This document shows positions 6,130 through 14,889 of a DNA stretch of 33,255 nt, in pieces. Each line of letters starts with the position of its first letter. Within the stretch, counting starts at the first letter, position 1. Below the pieces are notes generated by a model that saw only the letters and a list, made by a program, of their open reading frames with translations, did not search any database and had not been told where the DNA came from. The translations under genes were made by a program, and so were the position numbers. This DNA comes from a virus (lineage: Duplodnaviria; Heunggongvirae; Uroviricota; Caudoviricetes): the IMG/VR virus record IMGVR_UViG_2667527666_000008; one strand, written 5' to 3'.

Positions 6130-6325
6130 GCTGACCTCATTTCCCCTTAACGCCGGGTGGCGGAACTAAAACCTACAGCGCCGTGCTGTTCTTGATAGAA
6201 ATATTAGTAACGCGGATATTTTAAGTCAACAGTATGGCGTATGATATTTTTGATTTGGTAACTATGTAAATGTTTTTTCAAGGGAAAAATATTAGTTATA
6301 CAGCTGATTTGCAGAAGTTATGGCA

Positions 6326-6357
6326 CAAAAAAACCGACTAAGACGTCGGTTTTTTTG
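6326..6357. terminator. Bidirectional intrinsic terminator
   Basis: AAAAAAA-CCGAC-taagac-GTCGG-TTTTTTT: a 5-bp GC stem flanked by an A-run and a T-run, immediately downstream of the repressor gene. Confidence 0.6.
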
Positions 6358-6382
6358 TTGTGGATGGGGTAGTGAGCGGTGG

Positions 6383-6844
6383 CTACTGGTTACGTTTCTT
6401 TAGTGCCAGCATGTTCTCGAAGGCTTCCTCGTAGAGCTTGTTTAGTCCACGTAGCTGGTTAAGGAGTTTGGCTTTTTCTGACGCAGGTAGAATCTCGAAG
6501 AGGTTAAGTAACTCTGCCTGTTCTTCATTGACCAGCCTCCATCCTTTGCCTGAAAAGTTATCATCATAAGTATCTGATGATCTTACATAATTCATTAAGT
6601 CTTTAAGGTCTTCTCGAATGTCCTCTGGTTTTACCTTTAACAGAGCCGCAAATTTTAGCGCAGCGTCGGTATTTACCGGTATCTTGCCGTTCAGATACTG
6701 GCTAACGGTGCCTTGAGATTCGAATCCCAACAACTCAGCCGCCAGCTCTTGAGTCAGCTTCAGCTCTTTTTTTCTTGCATTCCATGCGGCTTTTAAATTC
6801 TTGCTCGCTTCTGGAGTTGCAATCACTTCGCGTGTTTTTTTCAT
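6383..6844 (-). CDS. Prophage repressor, XRE-family HTH (RacR/CI-like, no peptidase domain)
   Basis: 153-aa ORF with an N-terminal helix-turn-helix (QELAAELLGFESQGTVSQYLNG); divergent from a Cro-like gene; no Shine-Dalgarno before the ATG, as for leaderless lambda cI. Confidence 0.75.
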   Translation of the reverse strand: MKKTREVIATPEASKNLKAAWNARKKELKLTQELAAELLGFESQGTVSQYLNGKIPVNTDAALKFAALLKVKPEDIREDLKDLMNYVRSSDTYDDNFSGKGWRLVNEEQAELLNLFEILPASEKAKLLNQLRGLNKLYEEAFENMLALKKRNQ

Positions 6845-6945
6845 ACATAGAGTTTATTTGTTTTACCAATATTATCAAAGATAGTCTGGCTATTGATCTT
6901 TAAAATTAGCGGGGCTAATATTTGCTCGAGGCATAACGTAGAAGG
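6845..6945. promoter_or_regulatory. Divergent immunity promoter/operator region
   Basis: 101-bp AT-rich gap between divergent repressor and Cro-like genes; contains a perfect palindrome ATTAGC-ggg-GCTAAT (6905..6919) and an imperfect inverted repeat TCAAAGAT...ATCTTTAA. Confidence 0.45.
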
Positions 6946-7227
6946 TTGGCTATGAACTTAAGAGACTATTTAAAAGAGAAACATATCACCCAGCTACAGT
7001 TTGGGAAGCTAACGGGTTTATCTCAGGTGCATGTAAGTCGAGTGCTGGGGGGCTATGAAAGATTCAGCCCTGAAAAAGCATTACGTGTTGCTGAAGTAAC
7101 GAATTTCGAGGTTACACCTCATGAACTCCGGCCTGATATTTACCCGAATCCAACCGACGGCTTACCTGTTGGATTCAAGGCTAACACACCAAATGCATCG
7201 GAGTTGATTCATGAAAATCAGGCATGA
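6946..7227 (+). CDS. Cro-like HTH regulator (YdaS-like)
   Basis: 93-aa ORF with an HTH (ITQLQFGKLTGLSQVHVSRVL); first gene of the rightward operon, opposite the repressor. Confidence 0.65.
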   Translation: MAMNLRDYLKEKHITQLQFGKLTGLSQVHVSRVLGGYERFSPEKALRVAEVTNFEVTPHELRPDIYPNPTDGLPVGFKANTPNASELIHENQA

Positions 7228-7636
7228 GCACATCCGCATGGCGATGAATGCCTGGGCGCATCCGGACGGTGAAAAAGTTCCGGCAGCTGAAATAACCCGG
7301 GCTTATTTTGAGCTTGGTATGACGTTCCCGGAATTATATGACGACAGCCATCCGGAAGCCCTGGCTCGCAATACCCAGAAAATTTTCCGCTGGGTGGAGA
7401 AAGACACTCCTGATGCGGTTAAAAAAATTCAGGCGTTGTTACCAGCGATCGAAAAAGCAATGCCGCCTCTGCTGGTGGCCCGAATGCGCAGCCACAGTTC
7501 AGCTTATTTTCGGGAGCTGGTGGAGACGCGGGAACGACTGGTGAGAGACGCTGATGATTTTGTCGCAGTGGCGATCGCTGGTTTCAACCAGATGAATCGT
7601 GGTGGCCCTGCAGGAAATATTGTGGCTGTGCATTGA
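7211..7636 (+). CDS. YdaT-like protein (CII-position regulator)
   Basis: 141-aa ORF overlapping the Cro-like gene stop; size, position and N-terminal 'MKIRHEHI' resemble Rac-type YdaT family proteins as recalled. Confidence 0.5.
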   Translation: MKIRHEHIRMAMNAWAHPDGEKVPAAEITRAYFELGMTFPELYDDSHPEALARNTQKIFRWVEKDTPDAVKKIQALLPAIEKAMPPLLVARMRSHSSAYFRELVETRERLVRDADDFVAVAIAGFNQMNRGGPAGNIVAVH

Positions 7637-7707
7637 CTCGCAATATTCATACCGGATCACTTCCGGCAATTTGTGAGTAAAAAGATTCGGTATCAGAAGA
7701 GGTGAGT

Positions 7708-8748
7708 ATGGCTAACGCCTGGCTCAGATTATGGCATGACATGCCAAATGACCCTAAGTGGCGAACAATTGCCAGGGTGTCAGGGCAGCCAATTGCAACA
7801 GTGATGGCAGTGTATATCCACCTTCTGGTGAGCGCGTCACGAAATGTCACGACATGTCACGGCGTGTCACTACGTGGTCACATTGATGTCACGACGGAAG
7901 ATTTAGCAAGTGCGCTTGATGTGACGGAAGAAGTAATTGATTCAATTTTACAGGCAATGCAGGGGCGGGTACTTGATGGAGATTTAATCACCGGATGGGA
8001 AAAACGCCAGGTACTGAAAGAGGACAATGGCAACGTTTCACAAACCGCGAAATCCCCGGCAGAGCGCAAGAGAGCGCAGCGCGAGAGGGAAAAATTACGA
8101 AAACAGAATGAGGGGTGTCACGACGAGTCACGCATATGTCACGACATGTCACGACGAGTCACGACAGATAAAGATACAGATAAAGAATTAAACCCCACAC
8201 ATAACGCGCACGTGCGCGAGAGTGCTCCGACCAGTGAGTCGAGTGGTACGCCGTTGCAGGCAGCAGAACCTGCATCCCTGGATGGACTGAGCGAACCCAT
8301 CGGGAAATTTCCGATGGTCGATGACTGGCATCCGTCGCCGGATTTTCGACGACGGGCTGCGTTGTGGGGGATGGCTTTGCCGGAGCCGGAATTTACACCT
8401 GCTGAACTTGCCGCTTTCCGGGACTACTGGGCAGCGGAGGGGAAAGTTTTCACGCAGGTTCAGTGGGAGCAGAAATTCGCCCGTCACGTAAATCACGTCA
8501 GGGCGCAGGTTAAGCCAGTCAGCAAGGGGGTAAACCATGCAGCAGCACCAGGTGGCACCGCATCACGGGCAGTTCAGGAAATTCGGGCAGCACGTGAGCA
8601 GTGGGAACGTGAAAACGGATTTATCAGCGACGGAAACGGTCTGGAAGCTGTGGGAACTCATGGGGGAGGTTTATTCGAACCGCTGGACCCAGAAGAACGG
8701 GGCCGCACCTTCGAAGCTCTGGATTGCACAGATTGGCGCGATGACTGA
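7708..8748 (+). CDS. Replication initiator / replisome organizer (O-like, DnaT-like C-terminal region)
   Basis: ATG at 7708 with a GAGGTGA ribosome-binding site; conserved N-terminus 'ANAWLRLWHDMPNDPKWRTIA'; iteron arrays lie inside the coding sequence as in lambda O; the true 3' end is uncertain because the P-like gene overlaps. Confidence 0.6.
   Translation: MANAWLRLWHDMPNDPKWRTIARVSGQPIATVMAVYIHLLVSASRNVTTCHGVSLRGHIDVTTEDLASALDVTEEVIDSILQAMQGRVLDGDLITGWEKRQVLKEDNGNVSQTAKSPAERKRAQREREKLRKQNEGCHDESRICHDMSRRVTTDKDTDKELNPTHNAHVRESAPTSESSGTPLQAAEPASLDGLSEPIGKFPMVDDWHPSPDFRRRAALWGMALPEPEFTPAELAAFRDYWAAEGKVFTQVQWEQKFARHVNHVRAQVKPVSKGVNHAAAPGGTASRAVQEIRAAREQWERENGFISDGNGLEAVGTHGGGLFEPLDPEERGRTFEALDCTDWRDD
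7836..7892. repeat. Iteron array 1 (six GTCAC-core repeats at 10-11 bp spacing)
   Basis: GTCAC cores at 7836, 7846, 7856, 7866, 7877 and 7888, mostly as (A/G)TGTCACGAC; helical-turn periodicity. Confidence 0.6.
8117..8190. repeat. Iteron array 2 plus AT-rich direct repeat (putative origin)
   Basis: GTCAC cores at 8117, 8127, 8138, 8148 and 8158 (10-11 bp spacing), immediately followed by AGATAAAG-ATAC-AGATAAAG-AATTAAA. Confidence 0.6.
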
Positions 8749-9202
8749 GCAGCAAATCCGACAGGTCTGCCGCCAGTGCATGGACCGCTGCCGGGCGGGT
8801 GAAACATGGCCTCCGGACCTGGCTGAGTTTGTGGCGCTGATTTCAGAAAGCGGGGCCAATCCATTTGGCCTGACGGTGGATGCTGTGATGGAGGAGTACC
8901 GCCGCTGGCGTGATGAGTCCTGGCGATATGACGGAAGCGACAAATATCCGTGGCCTCAGCCTGTGCTGTACCACATCTGCCTCGAAATGCGTACCAGAGG
9001 GATTGAGCGCCAGATGACGCAGGGTGAGTTAAAACGACTTGCGGAACGGCAACTGACGAAATGGGCAAAGCATGTTGGTAACGGGATGAGTGTTCCGCCA
9101 GTGCGACGACAACTGGAAGGGGCGAAACACCCGCAAGGGCCAACGCCAATTGAACGGCTGAAACAGGAATACGAACGCCGGAAGGCAGCTGGTTTTATTT
9201 GA
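8537..9202 (+). CDS. Replication protein P-like (helicase loader)
   Basis: Resembles lambda P as recalled (WPPDLAEFVAL... ~ PSPGQFVAWCREE; MTQGELKRLAERQL ~ LTDAELRRKAADEL); AAGGGGG ribosome-binding site before the ATG at 8537; overlaps the last ~210 bp of the O-like ORF in another frame; alternative start at 8741. Confidence 0.7.
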   Translation: MQQHQVAPHHGQFRKFGQHVSSGNVKTDLSATETVWKLWELMGEVYSNRWTQKNGAAPSKLWIAQIGAMTEQQIRQVCRQCMDRCRAGETWPPDLAEFVALISESGANPFGLTVDAVMEEYRRWRDESWRYDGSDKYPWPQPVLYHICLEMRTRGIERQMTQGELKRLAERQLTKWAKHVGNGMSVPPVRRQLEGAKHPQGPTPIERLKQEYERRKAAGFI

Positions 9203-9235
9203 ATCTGAGAAACGATTTTGTCGGAGGAAATTTTA

Positions 9236-9562
9236 ATGGAAACCGTATTTGACGCACTGAAAGCAATGGGAAAAGCCACATCGGTAGAACTGGCCGCGCG
9301 ACTTGATATCAGTCGTGAAGAGGTTCTCAACGAGCTGTGGGAACTCAAAAGAAAAGGCGTCGTTGATAAAACTGGTCACACCTGGTTTCTGGCTGGCGAA
9401 GGTGAATCCCGGGTAACCGAAGAGCGGCCAGTAAAATCTGAAGCACAGGATATGCTGACCGGGGAGGTCGAACAAAAAGTTACCGCAGACATGATGATTG
9501 AGTTTATCGGTCAGGATGGGGCTAAAACGTGTGAGGAACTGGCGGGTAAGTTCGGTGTCTGA
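9236..9562 (+). CDS. Small winged-helix-like protein, 3' end replaced by the IS junction
   Basis: GGAGGA ribosome-binding site before the ATG at 9236; the stop codon TGA is formed by the first bases of the IS left inverted repeat (TGAACC...). Confidence 0.5.
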   Translation: METVFDALKAMGKATSVELAARLDISREEVLNELWELKRKGVVDKTGHTWFLAGEGESRVTEERPVKSEAQDMLTGEVEQKVTADMMIEFIGQDGAKTCEELAGKFGV

Positions 9563-9601
9563 ACCGCCCCGGGTTTCCTGGAGAGTGTTTTATCTGTGAA
9601 C

Positions 9602-10492
9602 TCAGGCTGCCAGATCATCGTTTCCGATGGAAGCATAATAAGCTTTTTCTGCTTCTGCCGGAGGAGTATGGCCCAGCCTTTCCAGCAATCGTCGATTGTT
9701 ATACCAGTCCACCCACGTGAGTGTGGCCAGTTCCACTTCTGCACGGTTTTTCCAGCTCTTACGGTGTATTACCTCCGCTTTGTAAAGACCATTGATGCTC
9801 TCCGCCATCGCGTTGTCATACGAGTCGCCTGTACTTCCTGTTGATGCCAGTAATCCGGCTTCCTTAAGCCGCTGTGTGTAGGCCAGCGATACATACTGAG
9901 AACCTTTATCACTGTGATGGACCGTGCCGGACGGTCGACGGGCCCATAACGCCTGCTCCAGTGCATCCAGCACGAATGTCGTTTCCATGGACGATGAGAC
10001 CCGCCACCCCACGATGTATCCGGCAAACACATCAATGATGAACGCCACATAGACGAAGCCCCGCCATGTGCTGACGTAAGTAAAATCAGCCACCCACAGC
10101 TGGTCAGGTCGTTCTGCCACGAACTGACGGTTTACGCGGTCGCCTGCGGCAACGGCTTTCCGGCTGATGGTCGTACGGACCTTTTTACCCCGGAGAACAC
10201 CGGCAAGTCCCATAACCGCCATGAGACGTGCCACAGTGCATCTGGCCACTCTGATACCTTCCCGTAACAACTGACGCCAGACTTTACGCACACCGTATAC
10301 CTTGTGATTTTCATCGTATACGCGCTGTATCTCTTTCTTCAGCCAGTCATCGCGCTGCGCACGGGCACTGCGTTTATCCGGATGATGTCGCTGTTGCTGA
10401 CAGTGGTAATACGTTGACGGGGCAATATGCAGTTCGCTGCATAGCGGTCCGACCCCGTACTGCTCACGCAGCTTATCCAGCAGTGGCATCAT
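9602..10492 (-). CDS. IS3-family transposase OrfB (DDE integrase core)
   Basis: 296-aa ORF with DDE catalytic signatures (WVADFTYV..., HSDKGSQY..., [15 protein letters not shown]); overlaps OrfA by 4 bp. Confidence 0.9.
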
Positions 10493-10815
10493 TTTTTCCA
10501 GAGGCGGTCGAACTCCGCCTTCGCAAAATAAGCGGAAGCCTGGCGAAGGATATCGTTACTGCGGCGCAGTTCACGATTTTCACGTTCCAGCTCTTTCAGA
10601 CGCTGACGTTCAGCGGTGGTGAGCCCGCCATCACCGCCCCCGGTATCCCGCTCATGCTGGCGAACCCAGACACGCAGAGTCTCCGGCGTACAGCCAATCT
10701 TTGGAGCAATGGAACAAATTGTCGCCCATTGTGAGTCATATTCGCTCTGACTTTCCAGAACCATACGGACTGCCCGTTGACGGACTTCGGGGGAAAAACG
10801 AGTATTTTTAGTCAT
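10489..10815 (-). CDS. IS3-family transposase OrfA (HTH)
   Basis: 108-aa ORF with an HTH and leucine-zipper-like C-terminus ([18 protein letters not shown]). Confidence 0.9.
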
Positions 10816-10958
10816 CCTGTTTACCTCTTTCTCAGGAAGTTTAGTCTCCAGGATTCCCGGGGCGGTTCAGTACTCGCAAGGTTGCTTCCACGCTGGCGGT
10901 GGTAACCGCAACGGGGCGGCTGGCACGCGTTAATCAGAACGGTAAATTTCGTTACTGC

Positions 10959-11315
10959 ATGCCGGGCGATAATTTACCAGCAGAGCCGAAAGCCGCGCTG
11001 GTAACGGAAAGTGATGGTAAGGCCTTTCCTCAGCCAGCAGGTGCTGCGTTACCAGTCCGGGAAGCCGCAACACAGGAAGAAATTAAAACAGAAACTGTGG
11101 CGGACATTGTGCAGCCGTTGCCATCGTTTACCGAAACGCAAGCAGATGAGCTGATTTTTCCGTCCCTTCGCAGGGCAAACCTGGCGCTGCGCAGGGCGAA
11201 AAGTGATGTTCAGAAGTGGGAGCGAGTCTGCGCCGCGCTGCGGGAGCTGAACAAGCACCGGGATATTGTTCGACAGATTACTGATTCTTCCCGCCGTGTT
11301 GTATCGGAAAAGTGA
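10959..11315 (+). CDS. Hypothetical protein
   Basis: Open frame extends upstream to the IS junction (GTG at 10899); the ATG at 10959 is taken as the start; no recognisable domain. Confidence 0.3.
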
Positions 11316-13805: not shown

Positions 13806-14889
13806 CTTCACTGAGTATCGGGGTGATAAGCTCAAACTAGCGAGAATGGCTGTTGGGCTTTCTTGTGAAGAGTTAGCCGAAAAAATTGGCAAGACAAAGC
13901 AATTCGTTAGCAAACTGGAGAAGGGGTGCAGGCCATCGGAGCAATGTCTTGAGTTAATATCTTCAGCGCTTATGATTAAGTCCAGTTTTCTTTTTACTGA
14001 ACGAAAATACGCTCTGGAAAGTGATGTCTGCCATTTTCGGAGTAAGAAGTCCAGGACTCAAACGCTGACTAATAGTGTATTGGCCAGGGCTGAGATTCTT
14101 AATATTATAATTTCTGCTGTTGAAGGTGAAATCGAATTTCCTGACGTTAACATACCGGAGCACCCAGGGGCTGAATTACTTACTCCGAATGATATTGAGC
14201 GAGTGGCAGAAGATTGTCGCCGTGCCTGGAATTTAGGTCTTGGCCCTATATCATCAATGGTTAAATTGGCGGAGAGTTTAGGGGTAATCGTTGCGCATGT
14301 TACGGGAGTCGATGATCGTGTTGATGCTTTTACTGTTCACAATAACAGGCCTGTTATCATCAGGAACAATGTTAAAAAAAGCATATGTAGATTTCGCTCT
14401 GATTTAGGTCATGAATTAGGGCATTTAGTAATGCATGAGGGCATAACGACAGGTGATAAACTTACGGAATCACAAGCCGATCACTTTTCGAGCGCCTTAT
14501 TAGTTCCCAGGTTATCTTTCATTAAAGAATTTCCACGAATACGAGGTAAGCAATTCGACTGGAATGCTCTGGTTGAATTTAAACTTAGATGGAAAATCAG
14601 CCTTAAAATGTGTATTTATCGAGCCAGCGCATTAGGCTTATTGACCCAGGAACAGGCAAGAACTGGCTATATGCATCTTAATTCCAGAGGGTATACGAGA
14701 GTTGAACCTGGTGATGAACTTTTGCGCCCTGAAGAACCCGGCATGCTGGCCGAGGCGATTGAAATGCTGGATGATGCAACCTGGCTAAGAATTCTTATGA
14801 AAACTGGCTTGAGCCAAGATTTAATTCGTGAGTTGTTCTCCATCAACAGACCTATTACAAATCCAAGAAATATTTTCCAGATTGTTTGA
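13783..14889 (+). CDS. XRE-family HTH fused to ImmA/IrrE-type zinc metallopeptidase domain
   Basis: N-terminal HTH (LSCEELAEKIGKTKQFVSKLEKG) and central HExxH zinc-binding motif (GHELGHLVMHEG) in an ImmA/IrrE-like context; 368 aa; AT-rich. Confidence 0.75.
   Translation: MMEHQVNNFTEYRGDKLKLARMAVGLSCEELAEKIGKTKQFVSKLEKGCRPSEQCLELISSALMIKSSFLFTERKYALESDVCHFRSKKSRTQTLTNSVLARAEILNIIISAVEGEIEFPDVNIPEHPGAELLTPNDIERVAEDCRRAWNLGLGPISSMVKLAESLGVIVAHVTGVDDRVDAFTVHNNRPVIIRNNVKKSICRFRSDLGHELGHLVMHEGITTGDKLTESQADHFSSALLVPRLSFIKEFPRIRGKQFDWNALVEFKLRWKISLKMCIYRASALGLLTQEQARTGYMHLNSRGYTRVEPGDELLRPEEPGMLAEAIEMLDDATWLRILMKTGLSQDLIRELFSINRPITNPRNIFQIV

Follow-up and report, generated by a model that had tools for sequence, protein, structure and literature searches.

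We analysed the replication region of a tailed phage (Duplodnaviria; Heunggongvirae; Uroviricota; Caudoviricetes) deposited as IMG/VR record IMGVR_UViG_2667527666_000008, a stretch of 33,255 nucleotides (nt) that we refer to as the window. The window is a lambdoid E. coli prophage adjoining ompW, and the region is 100% identical to E. coli 042, ABU 83972, NCTC86 and many others. Of 5426 complete E. coli genomes, 2564 contain DNA that matches all or part of its replication initiator gene; the matches include ompW prophages that neighbour Shiga toxin (Stx) phages. The gene contains two arrays of short direct repeats (iterons), array 1 and array 2, which an initial annotation had put forward as a candidate replication origin. 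The features that concern us are the following, in window positions:

7708..8748, + strand: replication initiator gene, an open reading frame of 346 amino acids that holds both arrays
7836..7893, + strand: array 1, six head-to-tail GTCAC(G) units, overlapping codons 43-62
7921..7925, - strand: one inverted GTCAC unit (reading GTGAC on the + strand), ~30 nt past array 1
8062..8082, + strand: codons 119-125, the basic-helix heptad ERKRAQR, proposed reader of the variable triplet of the iterons
8117..8163, + strand: array 2, five head-to-tail GTCACG units, overlapping codons 137-152
8164..8200, + strand: A+T-rich, purine-rich tract (ACAGATAAAGAT twice, then AATTAAA), candidate DNA-unwinding element
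8308..8508, + strand: DnaT-like domain, residues 201-267 (Pfam PF17948, 64.1 bits against a cut-off of 25)
8741..9202, + strand: lambda-P-family helicase-loader gene (PGAP 'replication protein P'; Pfam Phage_lambda_P; phrog_109 'P-like helicase loader')

A motif search returned the six and five GTCAC-core copies, recurring every 10-11 bp, that the initial annotation had described. Units of array 1 start at 7836, 7846, 7856, 7866, 7877 and 7888 (spacing 10, 10, 10, 11 and 11) and those of array 2 at 8117, 8127, 8138, 8148 and 8158 (spacing 10, 11, 10 and 10), with all eleven on the + strand. The arrays had been placed about 270 bp apart, which is roughly right: their starts are separated by 281 bp, and 224 bp lie between the end of array 1 and the start of array 2. 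Both fall within the open reading frame 7708-8748, whose product is assigned to PHROGs families named 'replication initiation protein', as the annotation had it. The A+T-rich direct repeat said to follow the second array is also there, as two copies of ACAGATAAAGA at 8164-8186. Nine of the 18 GTCACG words in the 33-kb window fall in the two arrays, as do all five exact copies of TGTCACGAC, and array 1 packs six GTCAC into 60 nt, whereas the largest such cluster in 200 dinucleotide-preserving simulations held three. Given this enrichment in the window and over the simulations, the repeats are far beyond chance. In the single inverted unit past array 1, codon V65 is GTG in 20 of the 20 species with Val at that place; an inverted GTTGC occupies the equivalent position in relatives with GCAACG units, and relatives with RAACG or GTGACG units mostly do without one. 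An Rfam search of 6300-9300 for RNA elements gave no match at E<=1, and a scan for an internal promoter or terminator tied to the arrays yielded nothing above chance.

The eleven units occupy all three codon phases (2, 0, 1, 2, 1 and 0 in array 1), and therefore they encode no peptide repeat. Selection on the DNA was examined through synonymous codons in 23 sequences with GTCACG-class units from different species and phages (Shigella, Aeromonas, Pseudomonas, Bordetella, Chromobacterium, Acidovorax and others), of which the first 330 nt align without gaps. Among the codons of array 1, V47 is GTC, T48 is ACG, G50 is GGT and V54 is GTC in 23/23, H51 is CAC in 22/22, and T55 (ACG) and S44 (TCA) each deviate once in 23. 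R49, the third base of which lies in a spacer, uses four codons among the 23 species, and conserved residues outside array 1 use all of their synonymous codons. Normalised synonymous entropy was 0.22 for the array-1 codons, whereas 49 other conserved codons scored 0.81 (Mann-Whitney p=1.2e-5). Unit numbers in 49 distinct close relatives run from 4 to 6 in array 1 and from 3 to 6 in array 2, with near-invariant GTCAC cores and variable spacers of 5-6 nt. The window and phage Tritos differ by 21 nt, which amounts to two units and seven codons. These patterns indicate that the repeats are under selection at the level of DNA. A protein repeat or a Cys/His metal site was considered and rejected on the three codon phases, on peptides that differ from one iteron class to another and on the frozen synonymous sites.

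The protein is named 'DnaT-like ssDNA-binding domain-containing protein' by PGAP in E. coli 042, and it matches phrog_1408 (E 2e-116) and phrog_3729, the two families mentioned above. The NCBIfam DnaT model matches in part, at 97 bits against a cut-off of 201, so that the initiator is not a DnaT equivalog. For the first ~136 residues (the N-domain) we found no sequence match in Pfam, NCBIfam or the PDB, and for the initiator no Pfam match to Phage_rep_org_N (PF09681). Weak PHROG matches to phrog_4880 'replisome organizer' (E 4.5e-5) and phrog_10469 'DnaD-like helicase loader' (E 4.8e-7) leave a distant kinship with phage replisome organizers possible, and many members of the family carry the NCBI name 'phage replisome organizer'. 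An AlphaFold2 model of residues 1-170, built from 126 sequences, has a mean predicted local distance difference test score (pLDDT) of 72.9, with values >90 over residues 11-40 and 61-100. It contains helices at 16-25 and 29-45, a hairpin or loop at 46-62, a helix-turn-helix (HTH; 63-70 and 74-84) with a wing, and a helix at 117-135, followed by predicted disorder from 137 onward (pLDDT <50 at residues 137-165). In this model the array 1 codons, 43-62, form a predicted loop between helix 29-45 and the HTH, and the codons of array 2 (137-152) and of the A+T tract (153-165) correspond to a disordered linker.

Homologues were collected from annotated phages, from one genome per species and from IMG/VR, giving 256 loci with 174 distinct N-domains; because the loci were chosen by homology, locus counts exceed the true number of independent events. 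The initiator family, with matches in at least 1273 protein clusters, takes in phages of Escherichia, Aeromonas, Pseudomonas and Ralstonia and about 60 bacterial species. Both arrays keep their positions across Proteobacteria and the phages of these bacteria: in 153 of the 168 distinct N-domains that could be scored, at least two units lie at the array-1 position (gene nt ~125-190) together with an array at the array-2 position. The initial annotation had called the two arrays unusual. That holds in comparison with the lambda and Stx origins, which have one array each (PMC7466680), but the arrangement is not peculiar to this prophage, being the norm for the whole family. Array 1 ranges from 2 to 10 units across the family and the protein loop lengthens alongside: up to four units fit the basal 23-residue loop segment without lengthening it, and 8-10 units go with a segment of 47-50 residues.

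Besides GTCACG, the family uses the iteron cores GTAACG, GTGACG, GCAACG, GCGACG and (C/G/A)(G/A)AACG(C); in Ralstonia phage Firinga, for example, array 1 consists of 4-5 GCAACG units and array 2 of five. Within a locus the two arrays share their core. Among the first 65 loci the array 1/array 2 pairs were GTC/GTC in 27, CGA/CGA in 11, GTA/GTA in 5, GCA/GCA in 4 and GTG/GTG in 3, and over the 174 distinct N-domains the matching pairs on the diagonal numbered 59, 38, 13, 12 and 3. The off-diagonal cases that we inspected were mostly counting artefacts from degenerate units of one class, such as CGAACGC beside CAAACGC. As judged from these comparisons, the core class changes in both arrays together.

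The core also varies with the protein. A basic helix follows the winged-helix domain and carries a heptad of the pattern x-R-x3-x-x-x6-R, whose third and sixth positions (K121 and Q124 in the window) vary in concert with the core of the iterons. Over the 174 distinct relatives the pairings were as follows:

K..Q with core GTC: 58 of 60
A/S..W with core RAACG: 38 of 41
S..H/R with core GCA: 12 of 15
T..Y with core GTG: 13 of 15
V..F/Y with core GTA: 7 of 8
S..Y with core GCG: 3 of 3
A..Y with mixed GTN units: loci L109 and L110

The GTA pairing occurs in at least three N-domain backgrounds (L110 and L112 beside the GTC-class L109, L121 among GTC-class loci and L124 among RAACG-class loci) and the GTG pairing in two (L138; L145, L146 and L149). 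Because these pairings recur in different backgrounds, shared ancestry alone does not account for them. Crude parsimony on a poorly resolved neighbour-joining tree gave about 14 switches of array-1 class, a figure good to an order of magnitude only. A version in which RAACG units were merged as one parsimony class was discarded: GAACGx codons that belong to the basic helix enter the count, and the 21 changes that it gives for array 2 are unreliable. Since the core changes together in both arrays and with two residues of the basic helix, the encoded initiator itself most likely binds and reads both arrays, and the helix covariation is the strongest support available for this. Loci L109, L110 and L112 (Erwinia, Pantoea and Enterobacter) have A..Y heptads together with mixed GTCACG, GTAACG and GTGACG units, some of which overlap at 5-nt spacing (CGTCACGTCACGTCACG); this suggests a relaxed reading of the third base by A..Y heptads. 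Two further loci, L130 and L139 (Serratia and Pantoea), have the N-domain fused to a different C-terminal part; they have no basic-helix heptad and no array 1, and carry (A)CTACGTA-type repeats at gene nt ~320-470 instead. They may represent a different use of the N-domain.

The A+T-rich tract directly follows array 2. At 8160-8199 the G+C content falls to 0.35, a local minimum, and the AT skew is +0.6, an excess of A on the top strand. Over 159 relatives, the 36 nt that follow the final unit of array 2 had a mean A+T content of 0.66 versus 0.44 for the gene and a mean top-strand purine content of 0.73 versus 0.57, and in 142 of them the tract was richer in A+T than the gene by at least 0.1. 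It usually consists of 6-nt repeats (AGATAA, CAGATA or GAGAAG), irrespective of iteron class. Its place and composition are those expected of an unwinding element, for which it is the candidate.

The end of the tract is also where the gene appears to have been joined. In a megablast search against phages, 7650-8186 matched Tritos, Evi and vB_EcoS-689R5 at 88%, whereas 8166-8800 matched the Rac-SA53 ydaU gene and PPompW phages at 93%, so the switch between the two sets of matches lies at 8166-8186. The recombination joint between an N-module and a C-module is thus placed just past the tract, as it is in lambda O. A single C-module, starting at AAACCCCACACATA, is joined to three N-modules with unrelated N-domains: the window type, a DUF1376 type (Rac-SA53) and an HTH type (PPompW_14040). 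Because the C-module recurs with different N-modules, the N-module, both arrays and the A+T tract are inherited as one cassette, as expected if protein and repeats must match. The C-module opens with a conserved joint, AAACCCCACACATA(A/G)CGC...GAGAGTGCTCCGACCAGTGAG, found at 8186-8240 of the window, at 1520-1570 of L003 and at 1505-1555 of L004, which looks like a recombination hot spot or a linker sequence for module exchange. L004 (Stx2a phage Stx2_14040 / PPompW_14040) has at least six ACCCAAA(A) repeats at 1300-1510, in the linker-coding segment only and as a single array; these are presumably the iterons of that HTH-type module. Partner modules vary elsewhere in the family too. In P0140, P0147, P0172, P0175 and P0212 the N-domain is joined to Pfam Phg_2220_C (PF09524) and not to the DnaT-like domain, and in Aeromonas, Pseudomonas and Ralstonia phages the next gene encodes a DnaB-type helicase or a primase-helicase and not P. 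Since the C-terminal part and the next gene differ among members, the N-domain and origin cassette has been combined with several partner modules.

Taken together, we consider it probable that both arrays are bound by the protein of the gene in which they lie and that, with the A+T tract, they constitute the prophage origin, array 2 as its core and array 1 as an auxiliary. The locus has the layout of a lambda-type origin: repeats in the linker-coding segment, the A+T tract next to them and a P-family gene at 8741. As the covariation suggests, the winged helix and the basic helix (~117-135) would recognise a word of ~7 bp, (T)GTCACG, and initiator molecules would line up head-to-tail, one per helical turn, on both arrays. 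Since the units are arranged in just this way, the bound molecules would be aligned along a single face of the helix. On the model of lambda, and in keeping with the conserved layout, array 2 (8117-8163) and the A+T tract (8164-8200) would form the core origin, where the duplex would open, and the DnaT-like C-terminal part would recruit the P-like loader with host DnaB; more speculatively, the DnaT-like domain might also hold the unwound strand. Array 1, on a tolerant loop of the DNA-binding domain, would be an auxiliary array that joins the array-2 complex by looping over ~230 bp, which is the least certain step. We favour a positive role for it, either in raising the local amount of initiator or in stabilising or enhancing origin assembly. 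In Stx phages, the two extra iterons are weakly bound yet required, and a similar concentrating or stabilising role has been proposed for them (PMC7466680).

Several observations weigh against this interpretation. About 9% of the relatives, among them the complete circular phage genome ctOK67 and several alphaproteobacterial prophages, have no array 1 and retain array 2 and the tract, so array 1 is not universally essential; these relatives carry no more array-2 units than the others (p=0.12). Helical phasing between the arrays is not clearly conserved: R is 0.3-0.4, varies with the period assumed and is inflated by gain and loss of units. Conversion of one array by the other may be partly responsible for their changing in concert. 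Locus counts overstate independent events, and the rough figure of ~14 switches comes from a poorly resolved tree. The basic helix is modelled at moderate confidence only (pLDDT about 57-80). A full-text literature search found no prior description of this initiator family or of GTCACG iterons, and no paper on any family member; the search left subscription journals mostly uncovered, and an older account, for instance in reviews of phage replication modules, is possible.

A more elaborate version of the proposed origin can be put forward tentatively. It would be a bipartite origin in which array 1 lies over a folded-domain loop whose length is set by the number of sites, specificity follows a two-residue code, the initiator and both arrays have been re-specified jointly and repeatedly, and array 1 serves a regulatory purpose of its own (cis-loading, looping control or handcuffing, for example) beyond the mere addition of sites. 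The apparent code would read K..Q = GTC, T..Y = GTG, V..Y/F = GTA, S..H/R = GCA and A..W = RA.

A negative role for array 1, like that of P1 incA, is a serious rival to the positive one that we favour, although we regard it as doubtful. P1 and F plasmids use a second iteron array to control copy number. By this account array 2 and the tract would be the origin, and array 1 would act by handcuffing, by titration or by blocking early rightward transcription; an array of this kind, limiting initiation or autoregulating the initiator and P as incA and incC do in P1 and F, carries the same doubt. Much of what we observed is compatible with such control. One protein is predicted to bind both arrays, no conserved A+T tract adjoins array 1 (the A+T state of 7920-7959 tracks a variable protein segment), array 1 is dispensable in some lineages, as control arrays are, and it precedes the origin on the route of early transcription. 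A lytic phage replicon, however, has less obvious need of copy-number restraint, and we found no promoter-like site or other regulatory signal in or near array 1. The sequence does not by itself separate negative from positive action.

It is very unlikely that array 1 has no function of its own and is a product of slippage and of gene conversion from array 2 into an insertion-tolerant loop segment, kept by repeated conversion. Its copy number of 2 to 10, with loop length following, and its absence from some lineages would fit such an origin, and conversion would also make both arrays change together. Conversion would, however, homogenise spacers too, and the cores are near-invariant whereas the spacers differ between units and between arrays. 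Synonymous core positions are frozen across 23 species, array 1 stands at the same place in about 91% of the 168 distinct relatives and in at least five specificity classes, and a 23-residue loop accommodates as many as four units with no gain in length, which looks like an overlay of two constraints and not like insertion. A neutral by-product is thus unlikely, because the cores are frozen beside free spacers and the array persists through several changes of specificity.

Finally, TGTCAC at 10-11 bp spacing resembles a Pho box and C, H, R, V and T abound in the encoded peptides, but binding by a host factor (for example, an OmpR/PhoB-type response regulator, which binds TGTCA-like direct repeats at that spacing) or a Cys/His-rich protein repeat is extremely improbable, since the core varies in parallel with two basic-helix residues of the initiator itself, also within enterobacterial hosts, which led us to reject PhoB and the like, and since the units are read in three frames, give wholly different peptides in different classes and are constrained at synonymous sites.

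The proposed origin resembles several known systems in part. As in lambda ori and its Stx variants, it lies inside the initiator gene, in the segment that codes for the linker between a DNA-binding N-domain and a C-domain that partners P; as in lambda ori, an A+T-rich tract is located downstream of the iterons and is followed by a P-family loader gene; and, as in lambda O, the N-domain and the iterons exchange as one module. The initial annotation had described a lambda-like origin embedded in the O gene. The layout is supported in silico, but the gene is a functional analogue of O and not a homologue, neither the initiator nor its N-domain matching Phage_rep_O (PF04492) even at E<=10. The iterons of lambda are inverted repeats of about 19 bp bound by O dimers, whereas here words of ~7 bp are arranged head-to-tail every 10-11 bp, and lambda has a single array, whereas here a second one is found ~230 bp upstream, inside the coding sequence of a folded domain. 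The iterons of lambda, midway along O, adjoin an A+T-rich region, and in Stx phages with six iterons the two extra iterons add 13 residues (PMC7466680). The number of iterons changes here, too, in frame-preserving steps, as in the 21 nt (two units, seven codons) noted above.

In phage SPP1, gp38 binds direct repeats of oriL within its own gene 38, beside an A+T-rich unwinding element and with the loader and helicase genes next, and oriR lies about 13 kb off on the circularised genome with its own unwinding element (PMC6316719). The window locus is like oriL in having the repeats for the origin-binding protein inside that protein's gene, an A+T-rich element adjoining and the loader next. It differs in that the second binding region of SPP1 is not a second array within one gene, and in that the window initiator does not match Phage_rep_org_N. 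The predicted winged helix of the N-domain may place it in the fold class of DnaD and RepA_N initiators (PMC7145576). Iterons of RepA_N plasmids are mostly semi-palindromic around a poly-A tract and bound by dimers (PMC7145576); the RepA_N initiators (pSK41, pTZ2162, PLE RepA) have no sequence match to the window protein, and no second array in a domain-coding part has been described for them.

With the P1 and F plasmids the locus shares two arrays for one initiator, one in the origin and the other auxiliary. In P1 (incC/incA) and F (incB/incC) the gene stands between the arrays, each unit measures about 19-22 bp and the second array is a proven negative controller, whereas here both arrays lie in coding sequence. 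OmpR/PhoB-type winged-helix monomers bind head-to-tail on short direct repeats one helical turn apart, a mechanistic analogy to one-turn repeats read by a winged helix; they are, however, transcription factors without sequence kinship to the initiator, in which an extra basic helix appears to be involved in recognition. We found no described counterpart, in the literature covered, to a second array inside the domain-coding part of an initiator gene.

An origin nested in its initiator gene is a long-familiar arrangement (lambda, SPP1 and RepA_N plasmids), and the present one is of interest for replication origins and phage mosaicism mainly through its dual-coded second array and its apparent recognition code. 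Array 1, over codons of a structured domain, illustrates dual coding with unusual clarity: the need for DNA binding appears to freeze synonymous sites and to drive loop length. The apparent two-residue code could explain how related prophages maintain separate replicons in one cell, and could supply orthogonal pairs of origin and initiator for engineering. If it is true, the initiator and both arrays have been re-specified together many times, giving mutually independent replicons. Knowing the origin of so widespread a family also helps in reading data on prophage induction and copy number.

Three genes of immunity and early control lie upstream of the initiator gene:

6383-6844, - strand: cI-like repressor
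6946-7227, + strand: YdaS/cro-like
7211-7636, + strand: YdaT/cII-like

Given this gene order, early rightward transcription would run through the initiator gene. Downstream, the annotated P start at 8741 overlaps the initiator stop codon as ATGA, and the two genes are translationally coupled. The +1 frame is open from 8537 and overlaps the last 212 nt of the initiator gene (8537-8748), and homology to lambda P starts within this overlap, at residue 55 of the open reading frame for Pfam and at residue 19 for phrog_109, both upstream of 8741. Either P begins upstream of its annotated start, giving a long dual-coding overlap, or the C-terminal tail of the initiator has overrun a former P N-terminus. 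Programmed frameshifting was rejected as the source of O-P fusion proteins: the one examined (P0021, 481 amino acids) is explained by a deletion of ~52 nt.

An IS3-family insertion sequence occupies 9559-10870, with 26-nt terminal inverted repeats at 9559-9584 and 10845-10870 and with orfA (HTH_Tnp_1) and orfB (rve) on the - strand; we take it to resemble IS629/IS1203. It interrupts a DUF1627 gene located 3' of P, the N-terminal part of which is at 9218-9562 and the C-terminal part at 10899-11315, and which is intact in E. coli 042. Further along, three tRNA genes are clustered at 19796-20045, one with a CAT anticodon, Arg-TCG and Arg-TCT. ARAGORN calls the first Met, and PGAP annotates its E. 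coli 042 counterpart as tRNA-Ile. Lambdoid and Stx-type prophages typically have clusters of this kind ahead of the late region. Tandem Repeats Finder reported further repeats at 2280-2366 (21 nt x 4.1, inside a large 'exonuclease' gene), 14402-14444 (20 nt x 2.1) and 27525-27578 (27 nt x 2.0).

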